Shown here: positions 1,686-59,109 of the stretch, piece by piece | How the letters are laid out: each line of letters begins with the position of its first letter | How positions within the stretch are numbered: position 1 is the stretch's first letter | Assembly (NCBI GenBank): GCA_040768685.1 | Contig: JAXGMM010000001.1 | Span: 553,279 to 617,278, forward strand | DNA: 64,000 nucleotides | Direction of reading: 5' to 3' | Origin: Anaerolineae bacterium | Lineage (GTDB): Bacteria; Chloroflexota; Anaerolineae; DRVO01 | Program-made: the position numbers and the translations under genes | The notes under the pieces: generated by a model | Database searches by the model: none | Told to the model about the DNA's origin: nothing | What the model saw: the letters and a program-made list of their open reading frames with translations, nothing else

Positions 1686-2450
1686 TCAGCCGAGCAGCCA
1701 GAGGCTGAGCGCCATCAGAAACATCCCGGCCATTACCCCGAGGATGGGCAGGTGGCTATCGCACAGTGAGCAGGCCACCGGCACCAGTTCGTCCAGCGAG
1801 ATGAACACCATCACTCCCGCCACCCCGGCCAACACCACCCCGAGCAAAGCCGGGCTGAGGAACGGCATCAGGATCAGCGCCGTGAGAAGGGCGCCGAGCG
1901 GCTCGGACATGCCGGACACGAGTGACCATAGGAAGGCCTTGCGGCGGCTTCCGGTTGCGGCGTAGATCGGCCCGGAAACCGCCAGGCCCTCCGGTATGTT
2001 GTGGATGGCGACCGCGGTGGCGATCGCGAGGCCCAGCCTGGGGCTCTCCATGGCGCCGGCAAAGGTGGCCATCCCCTCGGGGAAGTTGTGGATCGCCACG
2101 CCCAGGGCGATGAACACGCCCGTGCGCAGGTAGGCGCCGTCGAGCCGCTCGCGTACCGCCGGCCTCTCTCCACCCAAGTACTGGTGCGGGATCAGCAGGT
2201 CTACCAGGAACATCAGCGCCATTCCGGCGAAGAAGGCGAAGTGGGCAGGCAGGAAGCCTATGGTGGCCACGCCGTGGGGCAGAAGCTCGGAGAAGGCGAC
2301 CAGGAGCATCACTCCGGCCGAGAAACCTAGAGTCAGGACCATGAACCGAGGACCGGGGTTCTTGACCGTGACGGCCAACAAGCTTCCGAGCACGGTGGAA
2401 AGACCGGCGATCGTAGCAAGCCCGAGCGCAACCAGCATCGGCTCAGTCAT
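1686..2450 (-). CDS. zupT: ZIP family zinc/metal transporter ZupT
   Basis: HNFPEGMA and HNIPEGLAV ZIP signature motifs, 8 TM helices; likely start MTEPMLVAL at 2450 forming ATGA overlap with upstream sulfatase stop. Confidence 0.85.
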   Translation of the reverse strand: MTEPMLVALGLATIAGLSTVLGSLLAVTVKNPGPRFMVLTLGFSAGVMLLVAFSELLPHGVATIGFLPAHFAFFAGMALMFLVDLLIPHQYLGGERPAVRERLDGAYLRTGVFIALGVAIHNFPEGMATFAGAMESPRLGLAIATAVAIHNIPEGLAVSGPIYAATGSRRKAFLWSLVSGMSEPLGALLTALILMPFLSPALLGVVLAGVAGVMVFISLDELVPVACSLCDSHLPILGVMAGMFLMALSLWLLG

Positions 2451-3829
2451 GGGCGGGTCAGTCCCTCCAGCAGTTGCCGGCGCGTCCACTCGTTGAGGAG
2501 TGGGTCGGCGGTCTCTTCCATCCATGCCGCCAGTCGGGTTCGGAGCGTGGCCGCCGTGTCGTCGAAGGCGGGTGCGGCAGCGAGGTTGTGTAGCTCGGGC
2601 GGGTCGTGGACGAGGTCGTAGAGTTCATCCTCGGCCGTGGCGTTCCAGATGTACTTCCAGCGCTCCGTCCTCACCATGCGCGAACTGTAAAGGCCGAACT
2701 GACTGCCGTGGTAGGTGGCGAAGGCCTCCGCCGACCGTGGCTGATGCTCGCCGCGGATGAGGGGAAGCAGGCTTCGGCCTTGGAAGGTCTCGGGCGACTC
2801 GACGCCGGCCGCCTCGCAGAAGGTAGCGGCCAGATCGAGCGCGTGCGAGACGAACGTATCGCAGGTCAGGCCGGCCTTCGCTCCCTCGGGCCAGCGCACG
2901 ATGAGGGGAACGTGCACCACGTCGTCGTACATGACGTGGTGCTTGTCCATCATGCCGTGTCCGCCGCAGAGGTCTCCGTGGTCGCAGGTGTAGATGACCA
3001 TCGTGTTGTGGGCGAGACCAAGGTCGTCCAGTTCCGCCAGGACGCGGGCGATCTGGGCGTCCATGAGCGTTATCTGCGCCAGGTAGCAGGCCACTACCGG
3101 AGCCCAGTCGCTCCACTGCCAGTGGTCCACGCCCCAGGTGCGTCGCATCTGCGCCTGGACGAACGGCTTGCCATGCAGGGGATCGGGGAAGCTGGGCCAG
3201 GGTTCGATCTGATCCGGCGGGTACAGGGAGAAGTACGGTTCGGGAACGACATTAGGCAGGTGCGGGCCGCTGGGGTCCCAGCGGATGAGGAACGGTGTTT
3301 TCTGCGCTGCGGCGGCGCGCAGCCGGTCGATAACGTGGCCTGCCTCCCAGCCGACCTGCGACTGCTCCGGGCCAACGTGGTGATCACGTCCGCCCAGCCA
3401 GCCGCCCTCGGTGGGAACCGGAGGAAGCCCCTGCGCCTCTCGCCACGCGCGGTAGCTCAACCCCGGCGTGTAGTCGTGGAAGCCGGCCTGCAATGGGTCG
3501 CCGGCGATGCCCCACTTGCCCACGTAGGAGAGGTGATAGCCCGCGCCGGCCAGCGCCTGGCTGAAGGTGGGCAGGCCATCCACGGCCGGCCGTCCCGCCT
3601 CGGTACCACGGTTGGCGATGGCGAGGTGGCGCGTAGGCCATACGCCGTACAGCAGGCTGTTGCGGGCGGGCGTGCAGACGGGGCTGGGAGTGAAGGCGTG
3701 GCGGAAGTTGACGCCCTCGGCGGCCAGGTGATCTAGGGTGGGCGTTTGCACGAGCGGGTGGCCGTTGGCACCGACGCAGTCGTACCGGTGCTGATCGGAG
3801 TGCACGAGAAGGATGTTGGGCCGGTCCAA
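2447..3829 (-). CDS. sulfatase (formylglycine-dependent; CTPAR motif present)
   Basis: NILLVHSDQHRYD metal site, PVCTPARNSLLYG CxPxR motif, YTCDHGDLCGGHG C-terminal sulfatase motif; ORF track start 4111 gives 94 junk residues, TTG 3829 with GGGGAGA SD more likely. Confidence 0.85.
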   Translation of the reverse strand: MDRPNILLVHSDQHRYDCVGANGHPLVQTPTLDHLAAEGVNFRHAFTPSPVCTPARNSLLYGVWPTRHLAIANRGTEAGRPAVDGLPTFSQALAGAGYHLSYVGKWGIAGDPLQAGFHDYTPGLSYRAWREAQGLPPVPTEGGWLGGRDHHVGPEQSQVGWEAGHVIDRLRAAAAQKTPFLIRWDPSGPHLPNVVPEPYFSLYPPDQIEPWPSFPDPLHGKPFVQAQMRRTWGVDHWQWSDWAPVVACYLAQITLMDAQIARVLAELDDLGLAHNTMVIYTCDHGDLCGGHGMMDKHHVMYDDVVHVPLIVRWPEGAKAGLTCDTFVSHALDLAATFCEAAGVESPETFQGRSLLPLIRGEHQPRSAEAFATYHGSQFGLYSSRMVRTERWKYIWNATAEDELYDLVHDPPELHNLAAAPAFDDTAATLRTRLAAWMEETADPLLNEWTRRQLLEGLTRP

Positions 3830-4152
3830 CCGGTCTGGTCTCCCCAGTTCGAAGTGACGGGCAGAGGAAGAATACGCAGAACCCGGCGGATGTCTAGGGC
3901 AACTAGCGTCACCGACGGCTGGCCCGCCGAGATTAGGCGATCCGTCGGTGCTTCTCTGCCGGGTCAGAGCGCCTGCCCGGCGTGGGCCGCGTGCGATTCG
4001 GCCGACACCGTTCTGGCCGCCTCCGCCGGAAGCGGATGCAGCCCTTGTCCAGCTGGATTCCCCGGACTGGTAGCGCCTCTCCGTGCCGGGCCGGCGCGCC
4101 GGCGTCAACACAGCGGCTCATGTAGTTCTTCTGGGAGGCGAAACCGGGACGG

Positions 4153-4950
4153 CTAGCGTGCACCCACGGCCTGGAGGCAGGCCTGCATGTGCCCGCGCGA
4201 CTCGGCGGCGATGATGCAGCACTGCTCCACCGGGTACTCTTTGGCCCCAATTATCTCGAGATCCAGGGGGCCGGTGTAGCCGTGCTTGTGGAGAACGCGG
4301 ATGTAGCCGACGAGGTCGATGTCGCCGCGGCCGTTGGCCTGCATCTCGGGCTTGCCCGGGTTCTGCTGGCGGCCCTTACAGTCGCGAATGTGGACGTGCT
4401 TGACGCGCGAGATCACGGCAGCGATGGCCTCCACCGGGTTCTCGCCGGCGCGGTGGATGTGCGAGGGGTCCATGTCGATGCCGAAGGCGGGCGAGTCGAT
4501 GTGCTCCATGAGGCGCAGAGTGCTAGGGGTGTTGTCGATGGCCGCCCCCACGTGGGCTTTCACACAGAGGGTGACACCGTACCTCTCAGCCATCCGCGAG
4601 AGCGAGGCCAGCGAATCGGCGCGCTCCTTGAAGCTCTCTTCGTCGCCCGTCTTGCCGCCGGGCCCGCAGTTGATGATGGGGATGCCGATCGCCACCGCTG
4701 CCTGGAACGCCGTTTCCATACGGACCGGGTCCTGAGAGGGCTGTTCCATGGCCAACAGCTCGAGCCCGTAGTCGCGCGAGAGGCGCTTGATCTCGGGAGC
4801 CAGTTCCTGCCAGCGGTCGAGCACCAGGTGCTCGCTCATTCCGTCGATGGCGGAGAGCTCGATGCCGTCATAGCCGGACATGGCGATGTACTTGAAGGCG
4901 GTCTCCATGTCGTGGCCGCCGAAGAGAACCGAATTGGCTCCTAGCTTCAT
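4153..4950 (-). CDS. sugar phosphate isomerase/epimerase (xylose isomerase-like TIM barrel)
   Basis: MKLGANSVLFGG...GYDGIELS N-terminus typical of AP_endonuc_2/xylose-isomerase-like TIM barrels; conserved His/Glu metal ligands. Confidence 0.8.
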   Translation of the reverse strand: MKLGANSVLFGGHDMETAFKYIAMSGYDGIELSAIDGMSEHLVLDRWQELAPEIKRLSRDYGLELLAMEQPSQDPVRMETAFQAAVAIGIPIINCGPGGKTGDEESFKERADSLASLSRMAERYGVTLCVKAHVGAAIDNTPSTLRLMEHIDSPAFGIDMDPSHIHRAGENPVEAIAAVISRVKHVHIRDCKGRQQNPGKPEMQANGRGDIDLVGYIRVLHKHGYTGPLDLEIIGAKEYPVEQCCIIAAESRGHMQACLQAVGAR

Positions 4951-4996
4951 GTTTTGCTCCTCATATGGTCGGTGTGGACCGTCCGGTCAATGACGG

Positions 4997-5404
4997 TCAC
5001 TCCGGCCTCAGCACCCGGACGGCGCCGGAGGCGCGGGCGAGCAGTTCGTCGTCCCAGGTGACGAGAGGCACATCGAGCTCCTTCGCTACGGCGACGTAGC
5101 AGGCATCCGCGCCACGGAGGCGCAAGTCGCCTGCCAACCTGGCGGCGAGGAGGCCCAACCGCTCATCAAGCCTGATCAGCTCGAGTTCGGGCAGTTCCAG
5201 CATCTCGGAAACGAGCATCTGCGCCAGCCATTGAGCGCATGAACGGCGTGAGACCGCGCCGGCTACCTCAGCGAGCAGAAGGCTGGGCCCATGGAGCGTC
5301 TGGTCGTGATCGGCGAACTGAGATCGCAGCCATCGCCGGCTGACCTCGTGATGCGCGTCGTCGGTCACGAAGTAGCCGACCCAGACGCTGGCGTCAACGA
5401 CCAT
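4997..5404 (-). CDS. vapC: PIN-domain toxin VapC
   Basis: MVVDASVWVGYF...D...E...D acidic PIN residues, 135 aa, 1-nt overlap with upstream antitoxin. Confidence 0.8.
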   Translation of the reverse strand: MVVDASVWVGYFVTDDAHHEVSRRWLRSQFADHDQTLHGPSLLLAEVAGAVSRRSCAQWLAQMLVSEMLELPELELIRLDERLGLLAARLAGDLRLRGADACYVAVAKELDVPLVTWDDELLARASGAVRVLRPE

Positions 5405-5667
5405 CAGAGCTCGCGCCGCTGCTCGCGGACGGCTTCAACAGCAGAAACTCCCTTAGGCCACACTGCGGAGACCTGCTTCGCCAGTTCGTCGAGTCGATCC
5501 CAAGCCTTCTGCGAGCGATCCCTCATTGCCTCCGGGGATTCCGGCGCCACGATCCGCGCTACTACCTCGCCTCTGTAGGTGATGTCGATCCCTTGGCCGT
5601 CCTCACGCACGCGGCGGATGATCTCGCTGGTGCGCTGCTTTAGTTCGCGTATCCCTACCGATTCCAT
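5404..5667 (-). CDS. Phd/YefM-type antitoxin (VapB partner)
   Basis: MESVGIRELKQRTSEIIRRV...ITYRGEVVARIV typical Phd/YefM N-terminus; start at internal ATG 5667 with GGAGG SD. Confidence 0.7.
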   Translation of the reverse strand: MESVGIRELKQRTSEIIRRVREDGQGIDITYRGEVVARIVAPESPEAMRDRSQKAWDRLDELAKQVSAVWPKGVSAVEAVREQRREL

Positions 5668-5744
5668 CGGTACGCCTCCGGGCCATTGTATCCACATATG
5701 TAGACACATTGTACCACGGGCCGGACTCGACCTGCTAGGCCGGT

Positions 5745-6737
<993 letters not shown>

Positions 6738-6850: not shown

Positions 6851-7564
6851 CTACTCATAGCCGTAGTCGCGCATGGCCGGTTCGAGGAAGTCGAAGGTGT
6901 GCACGCCGGTGTCGGTGCGCCAGCGGCCTACCGCCTCGGGCCGCACCTTGATCTTGGCCAGGCGCATGCCCAGGTAGTCGCTCAAACGCTCGAGGGTCTC
7001 GTCCTGGCGGAGGACGAAGTCCTCGAAGCGGACGGTGATCCAGTTCTGCGGCTTGGGGGTCGTCCGTACCAGTAGGTCCTGGTAGAGCCAGGAGATCGCG
7101 CGCCGCCGGCGGATGTCATCGGTGAGCGGGTACTGGATGCCGAAGTCGCGCAGGTCGTCGGTCTTGTGCCCGGCCAGGATGCTGTCCCGCGGGTCGCGCA
7201 CCCAGAAGATGAACCTGGTCTCCGGCATGAGGCGGGCGATCCAAGGGAAGACGAGGGTAGTCTCGGGCAGCTTCCAGCCGCGGTTCTTGGCATCGCTGGC
7301 GAGGACGGAACGCAGGAAGACGCGCACCAGGTCGGTGAACTCCTTGGGGATGGCGCCGTCCAGGGCGCTCCAGTCCCAGGTGAGATCGCCGTTCCACTTT
7401 ACCTGGCGGGCGAGGACGTGGCAGGCATCGTACATGGCGAAGGGGGGCAGCAAGTCGCCGGAGCGATTCTGGGGTGCACCCATGTAGACGCCGCTGGCGG
7501 CGAGGGTATGCGACATGGCCCGGGTTCCCCCGTGCCCGCGCCCGATGACGGTGATCAGGCTCAT
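6851..7564 (-). CDS. PAPS-dependent sulfotransferase family protein (cytoplasmic)
   Basis: 5'-PSB loop VIGRGHGGTR near N-terminus and 3'-PB motif WVRDPRDSILAGH; no signal peptide. Confidence 0.7.
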   Translation of the reverse strand: MSLITVIGRGHGGTRAMSHTLAASGVYMGAPQNRSGDLLPPFAMYDACHVLARQVKWNGDLTWDWSALDGAIPKEFTDLVRVFLRSVLASDAKNRGWKLPETTLVFPWIARLMPETRFIFWVRDPRDSILAGHKTDDLRDFGIQYPLTDDIRRRRAISWLYQDLLVRTTPKPQNWITVRFEDFVLRQDETLERLSDYLGMRLAKIKVRPEAVGRWRTDTGVHTFDFLEPAMRDYGYE

Positions 7565-7685
7565 AGAGCAGTATCCTCAGACGGTGATGAGTGGATAGTG
7601 GACGGCGGCCAGCGGAGAGCCGAGCTCGCACGGGGGTGCGAACCCCTTGCGGAGAAACTCACCACTGGCCGCCGTCCACTGGTCA

Positions 7686-8696
7686 CTACAGCGTGACTAC
7701 CTCGCCGGTCTCCCAAGACTTGATGATGCCCTCAATGATGGTTTGGACGTGAAGGGCGTCCGCGCCGGAGGCATCGATCTGGTCGGGGGCGACGCCCTCG
7801 ACGTTCTGCTCGATCCAGCGGCCGATGCGGCTGCCGAACGTCTCGCCGAAGCTCATCATTCCGCCCACATAGTCGTAGGTGACAGTCTCACGGGAGAAGC
7901 GCGGGTAGAAGGTGAGGTGCTCGCAGGCGTCCACGAGGACAAAGCGCGCCTCGGAGCCCACCACCTCCAGTTCCTCGAGGCCATAGGAACCGCCGGCGTC
8001 GTAGGAGCCGGTGAGGTGGCCGAGGATGCCGTTCTTAAACAGCAGGTTCACCTGCACGTTGGACCAGCAGACGCGTCGGCCGCCGGGGCCGTCCTTGCGG
8101 GGGCCGCGCTTGAAGAAGGCCTGCACCTTCTCCACATCGCCGGCGTAGTAGCGCATCACGTCCAGCGAGTGGGGGTGGAGGGCGCGGATGTGGAACCAGG
8201 GCGAAGTCTCGTTGGGGTTGTTGATCCACATGCGCATGTTGACGATGTTGAGTTCGCCCAGCTTGCCTTTCTTGACCCACTGCTTGGCCATGAGGGCGGC
8301 GGGCGTGAAGCGGTGGTTGAGGTTGATGCCGTAGCGCAGCCCCTTGGCCTTCGCCAAGGCGACCATCTCGCGCGCCTCGTCCAGGTTGTTGGAGATGGGC
8401 TTCTCGCCCAGTACGGGGATGCCGGCGCCCAGCAACTGCATGGTGGGCTGGTAGTGGTCGCCGCCGTTCTCCTTACCCGCAGTGGTGACGCTGGCGGCGT
8501 CGATCTTCAGGCCGCCGGCGAGCATGTCGTCGACCGAGTAGAAGGCGCGGGCGCCGTACTTCTCGGCGGCGCGGTCGGCCTTCTCCTTGATGAGGTCGCA
8601 CACGGCGACGATCTCGGCGTCGGGGTGCTTCTGGTAGACGCCCGCGTGCGTATTGCCGATGTTGCCCATCCCTACGATGGCTACCTTCAGTGCCAT
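7686..8696 (-). CDS. Gfo/Idh/MocA family NAD(P)-dependent oxidoreductase
   Basis: MALKVAIVGMGNIGNTHAGVY Rossmann N-terminus; shares GEKPISN, LNHRFTPAA, SPWFxIxALHPH, LTGSYD blocks with 5745-6737; AGGAGAGG SD before ATG 8696. Confidence 0.85.
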   Translation of the reverse strand: MALKVAIVGMGNIGNTHAGVYQKHPDAEIVAVCDLIKEKADRAAEKYGARAFYSVDDMLAGGLKIDAASVTTAGKENGGDHYQPTMQLLGAGIPVLGEKPISNNLDEAREMVALAKAKGLRYGINLNHRFTPAALMAKQWVKKGKLGELNIVNMRMWINNPNETSPWFHIRALHPHSLDVMRYYAGDVEKVQAFFKRGPRKDGPGGRRVCWSNVQVNLLFKNGILGHLTGSYDAGGSYGLEELEVVGSEARFVLVDACEHLTFYPRFSRETVTYDYVGGMMSFGETFGSRIGRWIEQNVEGVAPDQIDASGADALHVQTIIEGIIKSWETGEVVTL

Positions 8697-8736
8697 TTCA
8701 TCCTCTCCTGATGACCTCTGAGAACCTCACCCCCTC

Positions 8737-8835
8737 GATACTCCGCTGTGCGGAGTATCTGTACCCCTCTCCGACACGGAGAGGGGTTCCGGAGCCCCCT
8801 TCCCGGCGCGGGAAGGGGGTTGGGGGTTAGGTCAC
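8737..8835. repeat. GC-rich triple-hairpin repeat element (copy A)
   Basis: three consecutive perfect hairpins GATACTCCGC-tgtg-CGGAGTATC, CCCCTCTCC-gacac-GGAGAGGGG, CCCCCTTCCC-ggcgc-GGGAAGGGGG followed by TTGGGGGTTAGGTCA; same core recurs at 33115, 36538, 41471. Confidence 0.6.
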
Positions 8836-10235
8836 TTTCTCGCCTCGGCCTGCAACTTGATGGCGGTCTGGATGCCGCCGATGTACAGCGTGTCGTAGGC
8901 CTGCTGCGACGTCTTGAAAGGGCCGACGCCTTCCTTCCCGTGCCAGTCGCCCTGGTGGTACATGGGGTTGGGCAGGCCCGTCTCGGCCTCGCGCTTGGCA
9001 ATGTAGGCGTGCATGCGCGCGCTCAGCGTCGCCACCATCTCCGGCTCGCTCTCGGCCAGGTTATGGTTCTCGCCCGGGTCCTGGATCAGGTTGTAGAGCT
9101 CCACCGGCGGCTTGAAGTGGAAGTCGGGCTCCAGCGCTTCTATCAGCTTCCATTCCGGGGTGCGCCAACCATGCTTGCGCATCCAGGTGCACTCGGTTAG
9201 GTAGATCTCGCTCTCGAAGGAGGGCGCCTCGCCGCGCACCAACTGCATGAGGCTCGGCCCATCCATCTGGTAGTCGCCCGGGTCGATCTCGGCCAGCTCG
9301 AGGATGGTGGGCAGCAGGTTCTTGTGCTGGTTGTAGCCGGGAACGCGCAGCCCCGCCGGCACCTTGCTCGGGTAGCGGATGATCAGCGGCACGTGCAGGG
9401 TGTTGTCGTAGATGCCGTGGTGATCAAAGTAGCAGTCGTGGTCGTAGAGCGTCTCGCCGTGATCGGAGTTGATGACCACGATGGTGTCGTCCAGGACGCC
9501 CAGGTCCTCCAGTTGGTGGAAGATGGTCTGGATACAGGCGTCCATGTAGGCCACCGAGCCGTCGTACTGGGCGATGATGTAGTCCTTGTCGGTGATTCCG
9601 GGCGGCATCCAGGAGGCGAAGAAGTCGCGGAAGGGCTTGAAGGCCATCACCGGGTCCATGGAACGGTTGTCCGGGTTGGTCTCGTTGCCGTGGTAGAAGG
9701 CCCGCTCGTAGGGGGGCGGCGGCAGGTAGGGAGAGTGCGGGTCCATGTGGCGCAGGAAGAGGAAGAAGGGCTTGCGCGACTTGGCCAGCCGGTCCAGCTC
9801 CGGCACGGCGACGTCGTTGAGGTTCTGCGCCTTGGGGCTGCGACCGTCGGCCCAGGAGCCCCAGCCGGGGAAGTCGATGTACTTGGCGAAGTCGCGCGCC
9901 GCCGCGTTGCCCTTGAAGCCGACGGAGGTGGTGTTGTAGCCGGCCTCGTTGCAGAACTGGGCCAGCGTCTTGGCCTCGGAGCGCATGGGGCCCTTGTGCC
10001 GCAGCGCCACCACCTGGGTGCCGAAGGCGTCGCGCCCGGTGAACATGCCGGCGTAGCCGCTGGTGGTGGGGATGTGAGGGCTGTAGGTGCGCTCAAACAG
10101 GGTTCCCCCCTGGGCGAAGCGGTCGATGTGGGGAGTGGTGAGGCGAGGGTAACCGTAGCACGACATGTGATCGGCCCGCAGGGAGTCGATCCCGAAAAGG
10201 AGAATGTTCGGTCTCCGACGGCGTCTCGGTGGCAT
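8832..10235 (-). CDS. sulfatase-like (alkaline phosphatase superfamily) hydrolase/transferase lacking the CxPxR motif
   Basis: NILLFGIDSLRADH and TPHIDRFAQGG align to sulfatase N-terminus but FGly position reads IPTTSGY (Thr-Thr instead of Cys-x-Pro); no signal peptide; SD GGAGG before ATG 10235. Confidence 0.8.
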   Translation of the reverse strand: MPPRRRRRPNILLFGIDSLRADHMSCYGYPRLTTPHIDRFAQGGTLFERTYSPHIPTTSGYAGMFTGRDAFGTQVVALRHKGPMRSEAKTLAQFCNEAGYNTTSVGFKGNAAARDFAKYIDFPGWGSWADGRSPKAQNLNDVAVPELDRLAKSRKPFFLFLRHMDPHSPYLPPPPYERAFYHGNETNPDNRSMDPVMAFKPFRDFFASWMPPGITDKDYIIAQYDGSVAYMDACIQTIFHQLEDLGVLDDTIVVINSDHGETLYDHDCYFDHHGIYDNTLHVPLIIRYPSKVPAGLRVPGYNQHKNLLPTILELAEIDPGDYQMDGPSLMQLVRGEAPSFESEIYLTECTWMRKHGWRTPEWKLIEALEPDFHFKPPVELYNLIQDPGENHNLAESEPEMVATLSARMHAYIAKREAETGLPNPMYHQGDWHGKEGVGPFKTSQQAYDTLYIGGIQTAIKLQAEARK

Positions 10236-10269
10236 GTGACCTCCAGGGTACGGTCGAGCTGGTGGGGCG

Positions 10270-10298
10270 ATTGTACTACCGCGGCGCGAGGGTGACTA
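10270..10298 (-). promoter_or_regulatory. candidate sigma70-type promoter of the sulfatase-like/Gfo operon
   Basis: minus strand reads TAGTCA-17nt-TACAAT about 30 nt upstream of ATG 10235. Confidence 0.35.
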
Positions 10299-10584: not shown

Positions 10585-11379
10585 ATGAGACCGAACCGGC
10601 TGCGTGAACTGCTGGACCAGGACCGGCCCAGCATCGGCACCCACGTCCAGTGCACCTGGCCCGCCATCGTCGAGCTCATCGGCCAGACGGGCATGTACGA
10701 CTACGTGGAACTGGTGGGCGAGTACGCACCTTACGATCTCTACTCCCTGGACAACTTCGGCCGCGCCGTGGACCTCTTCCCCAACTTCAGCGCTATGTTC
10801 AAGGTGGACCAGGAGCCCCGCGGCTACCTGGCGCAGAGGGCCATGGGCGCCGGAATCCAGAACCTCCTCTTCGCCGACATCCGCACGGTCGAGGACGCGC
10901 GCCGGTGCGTAAGCATCGTCCGGGCGGAGTCGCCGCAGACGGGCGGCATCCACGGGGTGCATATGCGCCGGTCGGTGGGGTACGTCCGGGACGTGGGCAA
11001 CGCCGCCTTCGTGCAGTCCCTGGAGGACGCCGTCGTCGCCCTCATGATTGAGAAGAAGGCGGCGGTGGAGAACCTGGAGGAGATACTCGAGGTGAAGGGC
11101 GTGGACATGGTGCAGTTCGGCCCCGCCGACTACTCCATGAGTCTGGGGATCCCCGGCCAGTGGAGCGATCCGCGGGTGTGGGAGGCGCAGAAGTTGACCA
11201 TCGAGACGGCGCTGAAGATGGGCGTGGCGCCGCGCGCGGAGATCGGCTCCGTGGACCAGGCCAAGCGCTTCTTGGACCTGGGCGTGAAGCACTTCTGCAT
11301 CGGCACCGATGTGGTGATCCTGTCGCAGTGGTGGAAGCAGACCGGCGATGACCTGCGCAAGCTGGTCGAGACCGCCTAA
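10585..11379 (+). CDS. HpcH/HpaI family 2-keto-3-deoxy-sugar acid aldolase
   Basis: N-terminus MRPNRLRELLDQDRPSIGTHV and size 264 aa typical of HpcH/HpaI class II aldolases (KDR/KDGlucarate aldolase-like). Confidence 0.8.
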   Translation: MRPNRLRELLDQDRPSIGTHVQCTWPAIVELIGQTGMYDYVELVGEYAPYDLYSLDNFGRAVDLFPNFSAMFKVDQEPRGYLAQRAMGAGIQNLLFADIRTVEDARRCVSIVRAESPQTGGIHGVHMRRSVGYVRDVGNAAFVQSLEDAVVALMIEKKAAVENLEEILEVKGVDMVQFGPADYSMSLGIPGQWSDPRVWEAQKLTIETALKMGVAPRAEIGSVDQAKRFLDLGVKHFCIGTDVVILSQWWKQTGDDLRKLVETA

Positions 11380-11394
11380 GAAGAGGGAGACTAT

Positions 11395-12186
11395 ATGGAC
11401 ATCAACCGCGTATCCTGCTGCTCGTACCCCATGCGCGCCCTGCCGCCGGAGCACTCCTTCCGCGCCCTCAGCGAGGCGGGGTACAAGAAGATCGACCTCT
11501 GGGGCGGCATGCCGCACTTCGACGTGAACAACCCCGAGTATGACTTCGACGCCGTGCTCGCTCTGTCGGAGAAGTACGGCGTGCGGATCGGCAACATCGG
11601 CTCCTACTGCGGCGCGGGCTTCACCAGTGAGGACGAGGCCGAGCGCGAAGCCGAAGTGGTGAAGACGACGAAGGTGCTGGACGCGGCTGCCCGCGCCGGC
11701 GCCCGTTCCGTGCGCAGCGTCCTGGGCCGGCCGGAGTCGCCGGAGCATCTGGCGCGCGTTCTACCCTACTACCAGCGCGTTGCCGAGTACGCTGAGAAGG
11801 TGGGCGTGTACATGGGGGTGGAGAACCACGGCGGCCCGTGCAGCGGCAATCCGCAATTGCTTGCCTGGTTCTTCGACAAGGTGGGCAGTAAGTACACCGG
11901 CGTCCTCTACGAGCCCTGCAACCTGATGTCGGCCGGGGTGGACTACAAGCAGGCCTTCGAGACGATGAAGGACTACATCACCCACATGCACATCAAAGAC
12001 TGCTACCCCATCAACGGCAAGATGCAGACGGTGTGGCTGGGAACCGGCATCATCGACTATCGCTGGGTGGTGGCGGCGCTGGAGGGTGCCGGCTACACCG
12101 GCGACTACCCGATCGAGTACGAGGTAGACGACGAGCCGCCGGAGCAGGGCATCGGCAAGTGGCTCGACATGTGGATGAAGATCTGA
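11395..12186 (+). CDS. sugar phosphate isomerase/epimerase (xylose isomerase-like TIM barrel)
   Basis: AGYKKIDLWGG...VENHGG...HMHIKD motifs of AP_endonuc_2 family; 16 nt after aldolase stop. Confidence 0.8.
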   Translation: MDINRVSCCSYPMRALPPEHSFRALSEAGYKKIDLWGGMPHFDVNNPEYDFDAVLALSEKYGVRIGNIGSYCGAGFTSEDEAEREAEVVKTTKVLDAAARAGARSVRSVLGRPESPEHLARVLPYYQRVAEYAEKVGVYMGVENHGGPCSGNPQLLAWFFDKVGSKYTGVLYEPCNLMSAGVDYKQAFETMKDYITHMHIKDCYPINGKMQTVWLGTGIIDYRWVVAALEGAGYTGDYPIEYEVDDEPPEQGIGKWLDMWMKI

Positions 12187-12640: not shown

Positions 12641-14629
12641 ATGAGTAGACCATTCACCCGACGTGACTTCCTGAACCTGGTAGCCTTGGGTAGCGCAGGA
12701 GCATTGGCGTCGTGTGCTCCGGCTACGCCTGGGGCAGTTGCAGGCGTGCCGGAGACGGCCGCGCCTGAAGCCGTCACCACCTTGGGGTTCCCCCGTGCCG
12801 AGACCGTCTTCGCCCAACAGTTGACGGGACGCAATGCCACTCCCAGCAACTTTAATTCTTGGGCCGGCTGGCGGCAGCGGGACCGCGGCATGCAGCAGGT
12901 CATGCACGAGCAACTATGGATCGACGACTTCGAGCGAGGCGAACTCATCGACGCGCTGGCCGTTGCCCCGCCGGAGTACAGCGACGACTTCAAGACGATG
13001 ACCTTCCAGATCCGCGAGGGCGTGTACTGGAGCGACGGCGTCGAGCTCACCGCTGAGGACGTTGCGTTCACCATCGACTTCACCCGGTTGGCTTCCGGCG
13101 CGTCGTTCAACGCCAGCGTGGCGGCGCAGGTCGAGAGTGTCGAGGCGACAGACGGCCAAACGGTGGTGGTTCAGCTCAAGGAGCCGAACCCGCGTTTTCA
13201 CTTTGAGAACCTTTGCGACCTGTGGGGCAGCCTGTGGGTGATGCCGAAGCATGTGTTCGGGCAGTTCCTGAAGGATGGCGAGGTTGACACGGAGGGCTTC
13301 TTTGCCTTCGAGTACAATCCTCCCCTCAGCAGCGGGCCCTACAAGCTGCACAGCTTCGATCCGGCCGGCAATTGGACGGCGTGGGAGAAGCGCGAGGATT
13401 GGCAACGCACACCTACCGGGATGCTCTTCGGCGAGCCCAAGCCGAAGTACGTGGTGTTCGTGGACTATGGCGACTTCACGGCCCGCGTCATCGCCATGAC
13501 TCGGCACGAGGTCGATCAGGTCGACCTTGACTTGCCTGCCATCAGAGCCGCCACCAAGGCGGAACCGACCGCCCGCGGCTACTATGCCGATCAGGGGTTC
13601 CCCTGGCTGCAGTCCAACCGCCACCCGGGCGTCGGTGGGACGGTGTTCAATACCCTCAAGCCTCCGTTCGATAACCCGGACGTCCGCTGGGCACTTGCCC
13701 TGGCCATTGAGCCGGTCTCCTACAGCACGACGGCGTACGACGGGTGTGCCGCCATGAACCCGCTGCCCATCGTCGTCAACGCCCCGCAGATGCAGGAGCC
13801 CTTCATCAAGCCACTTATGGCGTGGCTGGAGGACTTGACCATCGATGTAGGCGGCGGGGAGATGGTCAACGTGTGGGACCCCACGGCGCCGATGCGATTG
13901 GTGGAGGATGCGCGGGAGCGAGGCTTCGAGTTCCCGGATGACCCGGACCTGATTAGGTCGGCGTTCGGCTATGGCTCGTGGCAGTACAACCCCGATGCGG
14001 CCACCAAGCTGCTCAAGAAGGCGGGCCTACAGCAGGACGCCGACGGCAAGTGGCTCCTAGCGGACGGCACGCCCTGGCAGTTCAGCGTCTACACGGACAC
14101 CATCCCCGGTCGCTGGTCCTACCAGAACGCGCAGGCAGCGTACGTGGAGTGGCAGCGGTTTGGGCTGGATGTGAGGTTCGAGGTAGGCGACGCCGGTCAG
14201 CTGCGGATCGAGCACGGCAACTTCGACGTCTGCGGCGCCCAGACGCACGGCAGCAACTACCTGGAGAACCCCGATCTCTTCAGAACGTTCACTGCCTTCC
14301 ACTCGTCGTATCTGCAGCCGGTTCTCGGCGAACGCCAGTGGGGCCATCCCTCACGCTGGACGGACAGCACGGTGGATGCGCTGCTCGACGAGATCCGGGT
14401 AACAAACCCGATCGACCTCGAAACGCTGCAGCCACTGGGTCTGGAACTGCTCAAGACCTGGATAATGGCCATGCCTGCCATCTCGGGCACTACTTCGCTG
14501 GACCCGTATGCGGTCTCGAGCTACTACTGGACCGGCTGGCCGAGTGCTGAGGATCACTTCATAGTGCCTTACCATCACTATCCGAACTTCAAGTACCTCC
14601 TCACCTTCCTGAAGCCGGCAGCCGGCTAA
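12641..14629 (+). CDS. ABC transporter substrate-binding protein, family 5 (peptide/oligosaccharide), Tat signal lipoprotein
   Basis: MSRPFTRRDFLNLVALGSAGALASC twin-arginine motif plus lipobox Cys; length 662 aa typical SBP_bac_5. Confidence 0.85.
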   Translation: MSRPFTRRDFLNLVALGSAGALASCAPATPGAVAGVPETAAPEAVTTLGFPRAETVFAQQLTGRNATPSNFNSWAGWRQRDRGMQQVMHEQLWIDDFERGELIDALAVAPPEYSDDFKTMTFQIREGVYWSDGVELTAEDVAFTIDFTRLASGASFNASVAAQVESVEATDGQTVVVQLKEPNPRFHFENLCDLWGSLWVMPKHVFGQFLKDGEVDTEGFFAFEYNPPLSSGPYKLHSFDPAGNWTAWEKREDWQRTPTGMLFGEPKPKYVVFVDYGDFTARVIAMTRHEVDQVDLDLPAIRAATKAEPTARGYYADQGFPWLQSNRHPGVGGTVFNTLKPPFDNPDVRWALALAIEPVSYSTTAYDGCAAMNPLPIVVNAPQMQEPFIKPLMAWLEDLTIDVGGGEMVNVWDPTAPMRLVEDARERGFEFPDDPDLIRSAFGYGSWQYNPDAATKLLKKAGLQQDADGKWLLADGTPWQFSVYTDTIPGRWSYQNAQAAYVEWQRFGLDVRFEVGDAGQLRIEHGNFDVCGAQTHGSNYLENPDLFRTFTAFHSSYLQPVLGERQWGHPSRWTDSTVDALLDEIRVTNPIDLETLQPLGLELLKTWIMAMPAISGTTSLDPYAVSSYYWTGWPSAEDHFIVPYHHYPNFKYLLTFLKPAAG

Positions 14630-14647
14630 CATAGCCGCACAAGAGCG

Positions 14648-14684
14648 CCCGCGAGCAAGCCGTAGTGCCTGCTCGCGGGTTGCC
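14648..14684 (+). promoter_or_regulatory. intercistronic stem-loop between SBP and permease genes
   Basis: CCCGCGAGCA-12nt loop-TGCTCGCGGG perfect 10-bp stem then TTGCC; typical partial terminator/mRNA stabiliser placement. Confidence 0.4.
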
Positions 14685-14709
14685 ATGGACAACGCAGTCT
14701 GGGGGAAGA

Positions 14710-15717
14710 ATGAGATTCGTGAGGCGCTACCTGATCCCGCGGTTGATCCAATACGTGGGGGTGACTGTCCTCGGGATCACCATGATCTTCATGCTGCCTA
14801 GGCTTATGCCCGTAGGCCCGGTGGAGAAAGCGGTCGCGCAGGTGATGGCTCGAGGCACCTACTCCGACCCCAAGGCGGCCGAAGAGACGGTACGGGCGCT
14901 CCGCGAGATGTACGGATTGGACCAAGGGCTGCTGCAGCAGTACCTGGGGTTCTGGCGCCGGTTGTTCACAGCTGATTTCGGGCCGTCGCTGGTGGCGTTT
15001 CCCGCTCCGGTGAATGACCTCATAGCTGCCTCTCTTCCGTGGACGATGGGTCTGCTGTTCACGACGACGGTGCTGGTGTTCATCATCGGCAACCTCACCG
15101 GCGGATTGGCGGGGTTCTTCAGTCGGAGTCGGACCATGCAGGTTGTGGACGCGATGGCCATGGTCCTGGCTCCGATGCCGTACTACATTGTCGCCCTCAT
15201 GTTGATCATCTTGTTCGCGCATATCCTGCCCGTCTTTCCTGTGGGTGGCGCCTACACCATCGGCGCCAGGATCGAGCTCTCTCGGGGTTTCGTGATCGAC
15301 GTTCTGCGGCATGCGTTCCTTCCGGCCGTGTCTCTCGTGGTCCTCGGCGTGGCCACTACCCATCAGGTGATGCGGCTTATTGTGCAGGGCGTCCGAGAGG
15401 AGGACTACGTTCGCTATGCTCAGATCGCCGGCGTGAACCGCTGGACGATCTTCACACGCTACGTGATGCGGAACGCCATGCTGCCTCAGATCACGCGTTT
15501 TGCCCTGGGCTTCGCATCTTTGTTTAGCGGTGCACTGATCACCGAGATCGTCTTCGCTTATCCTGGAGTGGGCCTGCTCACCTACAAAGCCATCCTCTCA
15601 TCGGACTACAACGTGCTCATGGGCGTCACAACCTTGTCGATCGTGGCCCTGACGACCAGCACCCTGATCATGGACCTTCTGAACCCGCTCTTCGATCCGC
15701 GGATCAGGTTGACGTGA
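14710..15717 (+). CDS. ABC transporter permease (DppB/OppB type)
   Basis: BPD_transp_1 EAA-like loop, 6 TM; start at internal ATG 14710 (MRFVRRYLIPRL) preceded by GGGGGAAG. Confidence 0.85.
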   Translation: MRFVRRYLIPRLIQYVGVTVLGITMIFMLPRLMPVGPVEKAVAQVMARGTYSDPKAAEETVRALREMYGLDQGLLQQYLGFWRRLFTADFGPSLVAFPAPVNDLIAASLPWTMGLLFTTTVLVFIIGNLTGGLAGFFSRSRTMQVVDAMAMVLAPMPYYIVALMLIILFAHILPVFPVGGAYTIGARIELSRGFVIDVLRHAFLPAVSLVVLGVATTHQVMRLIVQGVREEDYVRYAQIAGVNRWTIFTRYVMRNAMLPQITRFALGFASLFSGALITEIVFAYPGVGLLTYKAILSSDYNVLMGVTTLSIVALTTSTLIMDLLNPLFDPRIRLT

Positions 15718-15733
15718 GAGGAGAGCGTCTCAG

Positions 15734-16588
15734 ATGAAGACACTAAGGGCCTTCTTCAGGGACCGGCGTTTCAGCATCGGCGCGGCACTGATGGCGGGGC
15801 TGCTCTTCCTGGCCTGTCTCTCGTTTCTGTCACCCTACAACCCGACCGTCTGGCGAGTTGTGCCTCGTGACCTCGCGCCTTCATCGGCGCACTTGCTGGG
15901 GACTACTTCCCTGGGCCAGGACGTGTTCTGGCAGCTCACCGCCGCCATACGCAACTCGCTGCTCCTGGCTGTCTTCTCGGCGATGATATCGAGGTTAATC
16001 GCCCTCTTCGTAGGGCTGGTGGCCGGCTACGTCGGTGGGATGGTGGACCGGGCGCTGATGTTTATCAGCGACGGTTTCATAGTGCTGCCTCTGCTGTTGG
16101 TGCTCGTGATGCTGGCGATCCTCATTCAGGAGCAACTGAGCCTACTAACCATGGGGTTGCTCTTCGCGCTGTTTGGGTGGGCGCTAGACGCTCGGTTCAT
16201 ACGCTCGCAGATACTCAGCCTCAGGGAGAGGGAGTTCACGTACACCGCTATCCTCTCAGGCACCCCCCCACTCAGGCTGATCTTCAACGAGTATCTCCTC
16301 TTCGTGGTGCCACTGACGACAGCGACGCTCATCGGGAACATGATCTGGGTGACCGGTATGGAAGTCACTCTGGCCTACCTGGGCCTGACGGACATTGCCG
16401 TCCCTACACTAGGCACCATGCTGCACTTCGCCCTCAACTACCAGGCGGTGCTGCTGGGGCTGTGGTGGTGGATCTTCACCCCTATCGGAGCGGCTGTGGT
16501 GCTTTTCGTCGCGCTGTACCTTCTGTCGATCAGCATCAGCGAGTACCTTGATCCACGGGCCCGCATCCAGCGAGTGGGCGGGAGATAG
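15734..16588 (+). CDS. ABC transporter permease (DppC/OppC type)
   Basis: N-terminal OppC-like region, BPD transporter signature, 284 aa. Confidence 0.85.
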   Translation: MKTLRAFFRDRRFSIGAALMAGLLFLACLSFLSPYNPTVWRVVPRDLAPSSAHLLGTTSLGQDVFWQLTAAIRNSLLLAVFSAMISRLIALFVGLVAGYVGGMVDRALMFISDGFIVLPLLLVLVMLAILIQEQLSLLTMGLLFALFGWALDARFIRSQILSLREREFTYTAILSGTPPLRLIFNEYLLFVVPLTTATLIGNMIWVTGMEVTLAYLGLTDIAVPTLGTMLHFALNYQAVLLGLWWWIFTPIGAAVVLFVALYLLSISISEYLDPRARIQRVGGR

Positions 16589-16597
16589 GGGCGGGCC

Positions 16598-17599
16598 ATG
16601 TGGGTGATCAAGGCAGAGAGGTTAGAGGCATCGTACTTCCTGGACATGCTGGGAACCAGGAGGGTCGTAACAGCGGTCAACGGTGTCGATCTGGAGGTCC
16701 GGGCAAACGAGATCTATGGGATAGCGGGGGAGAGTGGCTGCGGCAAGACGACTCTGGTCAAGACACTGCTCGGGGATGTCCAGCCGCCGCTGCGAGTGGT
16801 CGGCGGCAAGGTGCACTACCGCGTCGATGGAGAGGATCTCGATCTGTATTCGCTGAAGCCGGAGCTGCGACAGCGGCTTCGTTGGTCGTTCATCTCCTAC
16901 GTGCCCCAGAGTTCAATGAGCAATCTCAACCCGGTGGCCAAGCTGAAGGGCTCCTTCAGGGACTTCCTGAGAAGCCACGTGGGGCGTCGCGATGGTGGAG
17001 AGCTGCTGGAAAAGGCACGACAGCACCTGATGCACCTTGGGCTGCCCCCGAACGTGCTGGAGGCCTATCCGCACCAGTTATCAGGGGGCATGCGCCAGCG
17101 GGTGGTGATCGCTCTGGCTACTGTGCTCTCGCCTCGCGCTGTGGTCACCGACGAGCCGGTTACGGCTCTGGACGTGGTCGTTCAGCGGGGTGTGCTTCAG
17201 CTTCTACGGGAGGTGCAGCAGGAGCAGCAGAACGCCTTGGTGATGGTCACTCATGACATGGGGGTGCTGGCCAACATCGCCGATCGCGTCGGGATCATGT
17301 ACGCTGGGAGGATCATAGAGGAAGCGCTCGTCGAGGCCATCTTCAGGCAGCCACGACACCCGTATACCCAGTACCTGATCAACTCCTTACCCAAGTTCGG
17401 GGACAAGACGATGCGGGAAAGCGCCCCCGGGGCGCCTCCGTCTCTGGCCGATCTTCCCAAGGGATGCCCCTTCCATCCTCGCTGTCGGTACGCCATGGAC
17501 ATGTGCAGGGAGGCTGTGCCGCCCTCCGTGACCATCGCCGATCAGCATAGGGTGTCCTGTTGGCTGACCCAGGAGGGAGACGATAGACGCCATTCTTGA
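16598..17599 (+). CDS. ABC transporter ATP-binding protein (DppD/OppD type)
   Basis: Walker [20 protein letters not shown] signature, C-terminal oligopeptide ABC extension with Cys-rich [14 protein letters not shown]. Confidence 0.85.
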
Positions 17600-17627
17600 G
17601 GTCCAGAACGTAAGCAGAATCTTCCAC

Positions 17628-18566
17628 ATGGGCAGCGTCTTCTCGCGGCTCCGCATCACAGCCGTGGAGAAGGTGTCCCTGAGTGTGCACCGGGGCGAGA
17701 TCTTCGGGTTGGCGGGTGAGAGCGGTTGCGGCAAGAGCACCCTGGCGAAGATGATTCTCGGGTTCGAGGAGCCCAGCGAGGGTGAGATCATCCACCGGGG
17801 CCGGAGCGGAGAGAGCATCACCGGCAAGAACGCCTGGAGACGGGCAGGCGTGCAGCTGGTCTCCCAGAACCCGTTTGAGGCCTTCAATCCCCTGCGTCAG
17901 GTCGAGGCCTACTTCTTTGAGGGAGTGCGCAACTTCCGGCTGGCGGGCAACCGAAAGGACGCGTTAGCAGCCATCGATGGGGTGCTTCGGCTGGTCGGCA
18001 TGAGCTACGATGAGATCGCCGGCCGCTACCCGGCGGAGTTCTCGGGCGGACAACTGCAGCGAGTCTCGATTGCCAGGTCGCTTCTCAGCGGGCCTCTGTT
18101 GTTGATTGCCGACGAGCCGGTGTCGATGGTAGACGCCTCGCTACGAATGTCCATCATGAACCTCTTTCGGGAGTTGAAGGACAGACTCGGCCTAGGCATC
18201 GTGTATATCACGCATGACTTGGCGTCCGCGTACTACGTTTGCGACCGCATAGCCATCATGTTTCGAGGCAATGTCGTCACCATGGGTGATGTGGATAAGG
18301 TGCTGCTGGAGCCCAGGCACCCCTACGTGAAGCTGTTGCGCGAGTGCATCCCCGAGCCGGAGCCGGACAAGCGCTGGACCAGCAAGATACGCCTGGCCGA
18401 GAGCGAGGCACAGGAGTACTTGCGGACGGGCTGCAAGTTCGCCGGTCGGTGCGCACAGGCCATGGAGATATGCATGCGCGAGGCCCCAGAGTGCACCGAG
18501 GTCGATGGCACTCTTATCCGGTGCCATCTGTACGCCGGCGAGATTGCCAAGGAGAGCGTCTGCTAG
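17628..18566 (+). CDS. ABC transporter ATP-binding protein (DppF/OppF type)
   Basis: Walker [14 protein letters not shown], signature FSGGQLQRVSIAR, Walker B LLIADEP. Confidence 0.85.
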   Translation: MGSVFSRLRITAVEKVSLSVHRGEIFGLAGESGCGKSTLAKMILGFEEPSEGEIIHRGRSGESITGKNAWRRAGVQLVSQNPFEAFNPLRQVEAYFFEGVRNFRLAGNRKDALAAIDGVLRLVGMSYDEIAGRYPAEFSGGQLQRVSIARSLLSGPLLLIADEPVSMVDASLRMSIMNLFRELKDRLGLGIVYITHDLASAYYVCDRIAIMFRGNVVTMGDVDKVLLEPRHPYVKLLRECIPEPEPDKRWTSKIRLAESEAQEYLRTGCKFAGRCAQAMEICMREAPECTEVDGTLIRCHLYAGEIAKESVC

Positions 18567-18749
18567 GTCAGAAGGGCGGGCATTAGCACAGCGGGACGAA
18601 TGCACCGCCCGCTCCACAGCAGGCGTCTCTGCGACAGGCGCAGGGCGGCCGCTCTGGCGGCGGTCGGGCGCAGATCGCGATGCGCGGTCCCGTCTGTGTT
18701 TGTAGCCAGAGACACTAGGGCACGGGGAGCCAATTCCGGGAGGGATTGC

Positions 18750-24064: not shown

Positions 24065-24233
24065 CAAGAACGCGGCTCCCTTAACCATCGGGTCTGTACG
24101 GATTCATGAGGCAACGGGCGTCATTCTATGGGCCGTTCCCGGCAACGGCAAAGCCCGGCCCCTCTTGATTCGGCGTGACGGTCCGGCTACACTCGACTCC
24201 AACGATGATGAATGATCAACTGAGGGCCGAGCC

Positions 24234-57397: not shown

Positions 57398-57509
57398 TTG
57401 CCCGCTTCACGATTTGACAAGCCGGTTCGGCCGGTATCATAGTGAAACCTGTCCTCGGGGGGTGGCGTTTCGCGTCGCCCGCATCGACAGAAAGCGAGAG
57501 GGGAGCTTG

Positions 57510-58832: not shown

Positions 58833-58866
58833 CGCGTGGCCGGCCGCAGGCCACATCTGCCAGCGT

Positions 58867-58908
58867 GACGGGCGCCGGTGGGAGACCACCGGCGCCCGTC
58901 TTTCGTCG
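58867..58908 (+). terminator. rho-independent terminator
   Basis: GACGGGCGCCGGTGG-gaga-CCACCGGCGCCCGTC perfect 15-bp stem then TTTCGTCGCT. Confidence 0.65.
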
Positions 58909-59109
58909 CTCTGGTGAGATCGATGGGGCCGAGATTTCGAACAGGCATTGCATCTGCGCCAGGTGTCGACTAGACTCGAGGCACCTGAGCCGGACGAGGG
59001 GGACCGGTACGGACAGCGGAGGCATCGCCGACCGCCCACTCCCGCGCGAGGTCCGGGCCTGTGGGCCGTATGCTCCTCGCCGTGAGCAAGCATAGTCTCG
59101 AGGAGGGCA

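Follow-up and report, generated by a model that had tools for sequence, protein, structure and literature searches.

Does a protein with the fold of a sulfatase still act on sulfate esters when the residue that would become formylglycine (FGly) is a threonine? The question is raised by a gene in a 64,000-nucleotide stretch of an Anaerolineae bacterium genome (GCA_040768685.1, contig JAXGMM010000001.1, positions 553,279 to 617,278), the whole of which is here called the window. This gene encodes a cytoplasmic sulfatase-fold enzyme with a conserved Thr where true sulfatases carry FGly. We suggest, with a probability of about one half, that the protein is an active Thr-nucleophile ester hydrolase or transferase, probably with two metals, which acts on an anionic sugar and for which a phosphate ester is a likelier substrate than a sulfate ester.

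The translated open reading frame (ORF) holds the strings NILLFGIDSLRADH, TPHIDRFAQGG and HIPTTSGY, and the motif codons were translated again with the same outcome. The first-pass annotation had described the N-terminal region as sulfatase-like, and this was borne out by matches to PF00884 (Sulfatase, 4.7e-51) and SGSH_C (5e-15); both the PF00884 N-terminal domain and the C-terminal subdomain of the S1 sulfatase fold are present. PF01663 (Phosphodiest) also reaches 26.2 bits, over its cut-off of 23. The NCBIfam scores are far under the respective cut-offs for arylsulfatase (157 vs 481), choline-sulfatase (110 vs 433) and PehA (NF045661, 102 vs 900), and the EptA, CptA and LtaS models give 18-33 bits in the DHG region only, with cut-offs of 404-1200. 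Since all scores for the sulfatase, choline-sulfatase, PehA, EptA and LtaS models are below cut-off, no curated family claims this protein. The cytoplasmic location proposed for it also stands, as the protein has no leader peptide: in its predicted structure, residue 10 already begins the first beta-strand, and the 9 residues before this core strand leave no space for a signal peptide or a transmembrane segment.

The position of the nucleophile was read from two alignments. BLASTP against the Cys-type sulfatase of the same operon (29% identity, E 4e-42) has no gaps across the motif; T57 lies opposite Cys, T58 opposite Thr, S59 opposite Pro, G60 opposite Ala and Y61 opposite Arg, and the signature end T66-G67 is conserved. 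The phmmer alignment to PDB 4uph, the Agrobacterium phosphonate monoester hydrolase (PMH)-like sulfatase that is the best solved relative, also sets the FGly position opposite T57. HIPTTSGY is thus at the site of PVCTPAR in the same register in both cases, as first annotated, and the sequence (C/S)-x-(P/A)-x-R associated with FGly is here T57-T58-S59-G60-Y61. The set of close homologues comprises the 120 best ones, with counts over 119 (73-93% identical), all from metagenome-assembled genomes (MAGs) labelled Chloroflexi/Chloroflexota, Anaerolineae, Caldilineaceae, Chthonomonadaceae and Armatimonadetes. In this set T57 and Y61 are invariant (119/119 each) and T58 is Thr in 116/119, which indicates that the Thr at the nucleophile position is neither chance nor a sequencing error. 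No alignment puts Cys or Ser there, and the claim that FGly cannot be formed holds. The proposed Thr-Thr replacement was right for T57 only: T58 merely takes the next position (+1), where CTPAR has a Thr as well. T58 was considered as a nucleophile and rejected, since the alignment allows no shift of register on either side and more distant relatives vary at position 58. In the predicted structure, T57 is at the N-terminus of the helix 57-66.

Of the residues expected to hold a metal, D17, D258 and H259 are intact and invariant, so that the degeneration of the ligands, named beforehand as the sign of a pseudo-enzyme, was not found. Over two subfamilies sharing ~41% identity, the invariant residues are D17, D22, T57, D165, H167, D258, H259, E261, H266, D271, H272 and H273; the second Asp/Gln metal position of sulfatases is Ser18 in this protein and Thr in most of its relatives. 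Compared with type I S1 sulfatases and PMHs (4uph, 4upl, 2vqr, 2w8s, 7oz8), the fold is the same, but the Cys/Ser-x-Pro-x-Arg motif is lacking, and hence FGly, and an extra invariant Asp (D165) replaces the Gly two residues ahead of the active-site His. The sulfate pocket has also lost its Arg and its two Lys: where the paralogue has the motif Arg, the Lys of G-K-W and the Lys of K-H-H, this protein has Y61, F107 and D271, respectively, the counterpart of the last Lys being ambiguous by one residue (D271 in the paralogue register, H272 in the 4uph register). From the cationic pocket of S1 sulfatases only the His211 equivalent is kept (H167, which BLASTP pairs with the paralogue His). According to SulfAtlas, Arg55 and Lys375 are highly conserved and catalytically important in FGly sulfatases, and a protein that lacks this Arg is probably inactive as a sulfatase (PMC5066984). 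The replacement of Arg/Lys/Lys, together with the gain of two Asp, strengthens the earlier idea that the protein may catalyse something other than the hydrolysis of sulfate esters. Alkaline phosphatase (AP) and NPP have a two-metal core of Asp/nucleophile/Asp/His plus Asp/His/His. Judged by residue identity in the alignments, the candidate ligands D17/T57/D258/H259 and D165/H167/H272 have this same composition.

Such proteins are widespread. A scan of one genome per species returned at least 596 matching stretches, the best 80 of which are 67-78% identical and come also from Poribacteria, Trueperaceae, Gemmatimonadota and Abditibacteriota, and HMMER gave 8,945 matches at E<=1e-30 among 1.84 billion cluster representatives. 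Position counts were made on the best 150 of these 8,945 representatives (28-78% identity). The nucleophile position is Thr in 117/122, and the putative ligands and their neighbours are conserved as follows: D17 in 112/113, D165 in 123/138, H167 in 134/138, D258 in 132/135, H259 in 134/135, E261 in 131/135, H266 in 116/135 and H272 in 118/133. The Arg position (Y61) is His, Tyr or Phe and never Arg or Lys, the S59 position is Pro in 103/122, and the first ligand is at most 25 residues from the N-terminus in 72/113, these proteins being leaderless. The clade extends to Thermoprotei archaea, and its proteins are named in their sources only as "sulfatase", "sulfatase-like hydrolase/transferase" or "arylsulfatase A-like enzyme". 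On these alignments the protein is no isolated case: it belongs to a very large, uncharacterised clade with Thr. Its own family is 67-93% identical across Chloroflexota, Armatimonadota, Poribacteria, Deinococcota and Gemmatimonadota, which we read as purifying selection. Five relatives (P0141, P0155, P0158, P0165 and P0170) are 900-1550 aa long with two tandem Thr-type sulfatase-fold domains, and some of the tandem-domain proteins are also fused to TPR arrays, FkbM methyltransferase or HlyD-like domains.

A first AlphaFold model built with 28 close homologues had a predicted local distance difference test (pLDDT) score of 67.7, with active-site loops below 50, and was replaced by an AlphaFold2 model from 97 sequences of two subfamilies (pLDDT 86.9, predicted template modelling score 0.90). 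The top 50 Foldseek hits of this model are only FGly sulfatases and PMHs (template modelling score 0.59-0.69, 17-23% identity), and 4uph and 2vqr are the top structural neighbours (19-22% identity). By its modelled scaffold the protein therefore resembles sulfatases and PMHs, and by its predicted active-site residues it resembles the Thr-nucleophile members that transfer phosphoryl groups.

No known group accommodates it fully. Unlike the PehA group, it lacks the FGly nucleophile, and there is no equivalog-level similarity. It shares the Pfam family and the Thr at the homologous position with EptA/MCR-1, LtaS, OpgB, GacH and the inactive PbgA/YejM, but it does not have the N-terminal multi-span membrane domain of EptA/MCR-1, LtaS and OpgB, and its scores for these family models are sub-threshold. 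The DHGE...H-G of the protein and its His ahead of Pro-Tyr resemble D465-H466...H478 and H395 (second zinc), which we take to be the corresponding residues of MCR-1. In most of the clade, the motif T-x-P-x-[H/F/Y]-x4-[T/S]-G of the NPP group (PF01663; Xanthomonas NPP, ENPPs, PhnA, PafA/SPAP) is found; our protein has T57...T66-G67 of the NPP motif T-x-P-x-H...T-G, but S59 and Y61 instead of Pro and His. Relatives in the clade exceed the thresholds of both PF00884 and PF01663 (51-118 bits for the latter), and one member matches Xanthomonas NPP directly (1.6e-11). These dual Pfam matches are consistent with a bridge position of the clade between the sulfatase and NPP families. Taken by the defining features of each group, the protein appears to be neither an S1 sulfatase nor an EptA/LtaS enzyme, and it is borderline for NPP. 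PF00884 is already known to include non-sulfatase Thr proteins of the LtaS/EptA type (PMC5066984), so the presence of Thr is not new in itself.

The genomic context is summarised in Table 1. On the minus strand, the Thr-type gene is followed by Gfo/Idh/MocA oxidoreductase A, a Sulfotransfer_3 protein, Gfo/Idh/MocA oxidoreductase B, a VapC/Phd pair, a TIM barrel, the Cys-type sulfatase and a ZIP transporter. The best solved relatives of oxidoreductase A are sugar 3-dehydrogenases (WlbA 3q2i, DgpA 7xr9) and inositol dehydrogenases, and in many loci its homologue (62-80% identity) lies next to the Thr enzyme. Oxidoreductase B has sub-cut-off NCBIfam matches to UDP-GlcNAc 3-dehydrogenase and IolG, and DgpA is among the best solved relatives of both enzymes. 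The sulfotransferase family retains IGRGHxGTR and W.R.PRD, similar to the 5'-phosphosulfate-binding (5'-PSB) and 3'-phosphate-binding (3'-PB) motifs for 3'-phosphoadenosine 5'-phosphosulfate (PAPS). Motifs of the F3 TIM barrel are strongly conserved, with weak matches to IolE and epimerases.

Table 1. Positions of the Thr-type enzyme, its motifs and other genes, counted from the first nucleotide of the window.
Feature	Position	Strand	Evidence and remarks
Thr-type sulfatase-fold enzyme	8832..10235	(-)	467 aa; ORF, PF00884 match, AlphaFold2 model
P56-T57-T58-S59-G60-Y61, nucleophile motif	10053..10070	(-)	In place of x-C/S-x-P-x-R; predicted nucleophile T57
D17-S-L-R-A-D22-H23, first metal-ligand motif (D17)	10167..10187	(-)	Translation; D17 invariant
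D165-P-H167, sulfatase His and clade-specific Asp, candidate second-metal ligands	9735..9743	(-)	Translation, alignment
D258-H259-G-E261...H266...D271-H272-H273, second ligand motif and His/Asp cluster at the sulfate-binding Lys site	9417..9464	(-)	Translation
Gfo/Idh/MocA oxidoreductase A, second gene	7686..8696	(-)	PF01408/PF22725
Sulfotransfer_3 family sulfotransferase	6851..7564	(-)	PF13469 1e-12
Gfo/Idh/MocA oxidoreductase B	5745..6737	(-)	Pfam, PDB relatives, synteny
Phd/YefM antitoxin	5404..5709	(-)	PF02604 7e-10
VapC-type PIN toxin	4997..5404	(-)	PF01850 8e-16
Xylose-isomerase-like TIM barrel (family F3)	4153..4950	(-)	265 aa; PF01261 6.9e-29
Canonical Cys-type (CTPAR) sulfatase paralogue, end of gene string	2447..4111	(-)	PF00884 3e-41, SGSH_C 9e-27, PVCTPAR
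ZIP-family metal transporter	1686..2525	(-)	PF02535 6e-27
HpcH-family aldolase and second xylose-isomerase-like TIM barrel	10585..12186	(+)	PF03328, PF01261; between cluster and importer
Opp/Dpp-type ABC importer: SBP_bac_5 lipoprotein, two permeases, two ATPases	12641..18566	(+)	Pfam, NCBIfam; divergent
URO-D/MtaA-like proteins	18600..19820 and 54090..55145		Each beside an SBP_bac_5 ABC system
Tandem amidohydrolases	19965..21110 and 21197..22315		After the first URO-D-linked ABC system
SBP_bac_5 gene	22343..24088		Follows the tandem amidohydrolases
Third Gfo/Idh/MocA gene, PFK, 658-aa SBP_bac_5 protein	55422..61086		

Neighbourhoods were counted in 40 species-level loci that have 5 kb or more on either side, taking partners within 7 kb. 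The TIM barrel is near the Thr enzyme in 31/40 loci, Gfo/Idh/MocA in 30/40, the sulfotransferase in 25/40 and the importer, divergent from the cluster, in 18/40; none of these partners is present in 8/40, mainly from Poribacteria and Chthonomonadaceae. Homologues of the Cys-type sulfatase come after the cluster in three loci (L023, L028 and L043). The gene had been annotated as the first of an operon with a PAPS-type sulfotransferase. It is indeed co-directional with it, and this arrangement is conserved in many species, but the dehydrogenases and the TIM barrel are the steadier partners. Genes for PhyH-family Fe/2-oxoglutarate dioxygenases adjoin Thr-type genes in seven loci (L021, L049, L053, L068, L072, L085 and L088), with such neighbours seen in Poribacteria, in other loci and in a sister subfamily (PF05721 1e-33 for one representative). 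In one Chloroflexi MAG (L001), a radical S-adenosylmethionine (SAM)/SPASM protein with a SEC-C motif is encoded at 5326-6537 (-), and it is not conserved elsewhere.

Pairs of Gfo/Idh/MocA enzymes with TIM barrels annotated as 'sugar phosphate isomerase' cleave glycosides by oxidation, beta-elimination, hydration and reduction (10.1101/2024.03.25.586180; PMC7676230; PMC10628242), and one such cluster takes 6-phospho and 6-sulfo glycosides (10.1101/2024.03.25.586180). Our cluster shares two Gfo/Idh/MocA proteins and one or two TIM barrels with those of the BT2156-2160 type (B. thetaiotaomicron), levoglucosan Lgd and DgpA/BC, whereas the sulfatase-fold protein and the sulfotransferase are found only in ours. 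The partner genes are only distantly homologous to the characterised enzymes, all NCBIfam scores being sub-cut-off. In Phototrophicaceae the cluster continues into an L-rhamnose isomerase (PF06134, 5.7e-197) and a large aldolase/short-chain dehydrogenase fusion. In three loci a GH78-like protein, recognised by eye only, is near the cluster. Along with the 2-keto-3-deoxy-sugar-acid aldolase-like gene in the window, the isomerase and the GH78-like protein point suggestively to rhamnose-containing substrates. The contexts of a 46%-identical sister subfamily (P0129 group) are mixed, with rhamnosidase/GH2, PhyH and 2-hydroxyacid dehydrogenase, and do not narrow the substrate.

In the mechanism that we favour, a metal held by D17, D258 and H259 would activate Thr57 as an alkoxide, without FGly, and Thr57 would attack the anionic ester of the substrate, giving a covalent Thr-O-phosphoryl (less likely sulfuryl) intermediate. 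A second metal at D165, H167 and H272, aided by D271, H273 and H266, would stabilise both the transition state and the leaving group in the manner of NPP, AP, MCR-1 and EptA, and water or an acceptor would resolve the Thr-ester intermediate. The substrate would most likely be a phosphate mono- or diester on a sugar, glycoside or cyclitol, brought in by the adjoining ABC importer, and the product would then pass to the two Gfo/Idh/MocA dehydrogenases and the TIM barrel for oxidation, beta-elimination and reduction. To our knowledge, all characterised Thr-nucleophile members of the superfamily (NPP, PhnA, phosphopentomutase, EptA/MCR-1, LtaS, PafA/SPAP) transfer phosphoryl-type groups, and Ser in place of FGly traps sulfatases at the sulfo-enzyme. 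A phosphate ester is favoured because Thr-type relatives transfer phosphoryl groups, the sulfate pocket is dismantled and such Ser-for-FGly mutants stall. The second metal site, the covalent catalysis, the preference for phosphate over sulfate and the pathway role are what we infer from these data.

Several points weigh against a two-metal phosphoryl-type enzyme. The second metal site is judged probable only from the identity of the ligands and their homologous positions, and the model segments that concern this region, 167-223 and 260-280, have moderate confidence (pLDDT 65-81). No solved structure inside the Thr clade was found by sequence search. Most of the clade has Pro and His/Phe/Tyr at two motif positions that are S59 and Y61 in the family of our protein. 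Nothing obviously related to phosphate is in the cluster, which has no kinase and no phosphotransferase; the context is rather sulfur-flavoured, as 63% of loci have the PAPS-type sulfotransferase and some also have a canonical sulfatase. Finally, our literature searches on a Thr-type or FGly-independent sulfatase, on this gene cluster and on eliminative desulfation returned nothing specific. The soluble cytoplasmic Thr clade on an arylsulfatase/PMH scaffold, its AP/NPP-like ligands and its conserved operon thus seem to be undescribed.

The sulfur-flavoured context keeps alive a sulfate-ester role, in which Thr57 would attack the sulfur of a sulfated sugar, e.g. a sulfated rhamnose-containing oligosaccharide, and the sulfo-Thr would be hydrolysed or its sulfuryl group passed on, the enzyme working beside the sulfotransferase and canonical sulfatase that the cluster encodes. 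This role is possible but doubtful, since all three cationic residues that would bind sulfate have been exchanged and acidic ones gained, the Thr enzyme has no sulfotransferase nearby in 15/40 loci and a sulfo-enzyme with an FGly-to-Ser mutation is stalled. At the bimetallo sites of AP and NPP, sulfate esters are poorer substrates for hydrolysis than phosphate esters by many orders of magnitude, and we know of no native sulfatase with a Thr nucleophile. We also consider unlikely, for the clade as a whole, an FGly-independent route to sulfate-ester chemistry in which a metal-activated Thr57 would carry the sulfuryl group and the protein would be a cytoplasmic sulfatase, or a sulfuryl transferase cooperating with the PAPS sulfotransferase. 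If it were true, this sulfate chemistry would require no O2- or radical-SAM-dependent maturation, which would explain the frequency of the clade in organisms annotated as sulfatase-rich. A related proposal retains a cofactor: Thr57 could be oxidised by a radical-SAM maturase to a 3-oxo (ketone) residue whose hydrate mimics FGly. Anaerobic sulfatase-maturating enzymes (anSMEs) turn threonyl peptides into a ketone in vitro, and the radical-SAM/SPASM gene of L001 is three genes upstream of the homologue there. That Thr oxidation would yield a ketone is also stated by SulfAtlas (PMC5066984). Such a cryptic cofactor is nevertheless very improbable, as the Pro and Arg recognised by the maturase are absent in the family, the sulfate-binding residues are lost, the ligand pattern suits a direct metal-activated alkoxide and no maturase is conserved in the examined neighbourhoods.

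The presence of a sulfotransferase in the cluster could be explained in another way, by a nucleotide-directed enzyme that serves it. 3'-Phosphoadenosine 5'-phosphate (PAP) product-inhibits sulfotransferases, and cells require a PAP phosphatase; an NPP-like hydrolase of the 3'-phosphate of PAP, or of phosphosulfate or phosphodiester bonds of PAPS or adenosine 5'-phosphosulfate, would clear the by-product that inhibits the sulfotransferase or regulate the sulfate donor. Both the NPP-like motif and ligand set of the active site and the 5'-PSB- and 3'-PB-like motifs of the linked sulfotransferase family agree with this. We find it quite unlikely, however, given the tighter linkage with the dehydrogenases and the TIM barrel, the 15/40 loci with no sulfotransferase nearby and the better conservation of the Thr enzyme (67-78% identity, against 54-67% for the sulfotransferase), and because relatives in other contexts adjoin glycoside hydrolases and not sulfotransferases. 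A pseudo-enzyme, or a ligand-binding or regulatory protein without catalysis, would account for the absence of the canonical catalytic residue and of several sulfate-binding residues. But the metal ligands and the set of polar active-site residues are invariant over subfamilies and phyla, and an identity of 67-93% over at least 5 phyla with a fixed position in a metabolic operon argues for a constrained catalytic site. We therefore rejected the pseudo-enzyme, which is barely credible with the ligands conserved.

Other features of the window concern the surroundings of the enzyme. The HpcH aldolase (75-99 bits with 2-keto-3-deoxy-sugar-acid aldolase models, sub-cut-off) and the second TIM barrel are specific to the window and not generally conserved beside the Thr enzyme. 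The ORF of the Cys-type sulfatase has ~90 N-terminal low-complexity residues rich in Arg, Gly and Ser ahead of the conserved RPNILLVHSDQ; its real start is probably near residue 90, which would make this enzyme leaderless and cytoplasmic too. No gene for the formylglycine-generating enzyme or an anSME was found among the scanned genes of the window, several ORFs at 24-54 kb being outside the scan. The ZIP transporter gene comes directly after the Cys-type sulfatase gene, nominally overlapping it, and could supply metal to both metalloenzymes. The VapC/Phd pair is inserted between the oxidoreductase B and TIM-barrel genes, and in other genomes the same gene string is contiguous. Two antisense ORFs, 9324-10295 (+), 323 aa, and 7647-8711 (+), 354 aa, were rejected as genes, being high-GC mirror ORFs that oppose the Thr-enzyme and oxidoreductase A genes, respectively; longest-ORF calling took the latter mirror ORF and its counterparts in several loci. 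No riboswitch was found around the cluster by Rfam, and a promoter/terminator scan gave a weak promoter-like site upstream of the Thr gene and zero intergenic terminators, which is weak evidence since the counts are within shuffle expectation. The GC content at third codon positions is 0.88-0.93 in the cluster genes (4153-12186) and 0.76-0.85 in the adjacent transporter and most genes of the window. Combined with the 67-78% protein identity over five phyla, this high value hints at horizontal spread or very high expression.

Thousands of proteins of the Thr clade, from Chloroflexota, Armatimonadota, Poribacteria, Deinococcota, Gemmatimonadota and even Thermoprotei, are named "sulfatase" or "arylsulfatase A-like" though unable to form FGly, and sulfatase counts based on MAGs, e.g. 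of sponge symbionts and activated-sludge Chloroflexi, are likely inflated as a result. The clade combines a sulfatase/PMH scaffold with an NPP/AP-like nucleophile motif and ligands, detectable by sequence from both sides, and it would be a natural system in which to study how the superfamily changed between phosphoryl transfer with two metals and sulfuryl transfer with one metal and FGly. The Thr enzyme heads a strongly conserved and probably horizontally spread operon with an importer, two sugar dehydrogenases, a TIM-barrel lyase/isomerase and a sulfotransferase, and identifying what it acts on would reveal a new pathway, in the cytoplasm, for an anionic sugar.

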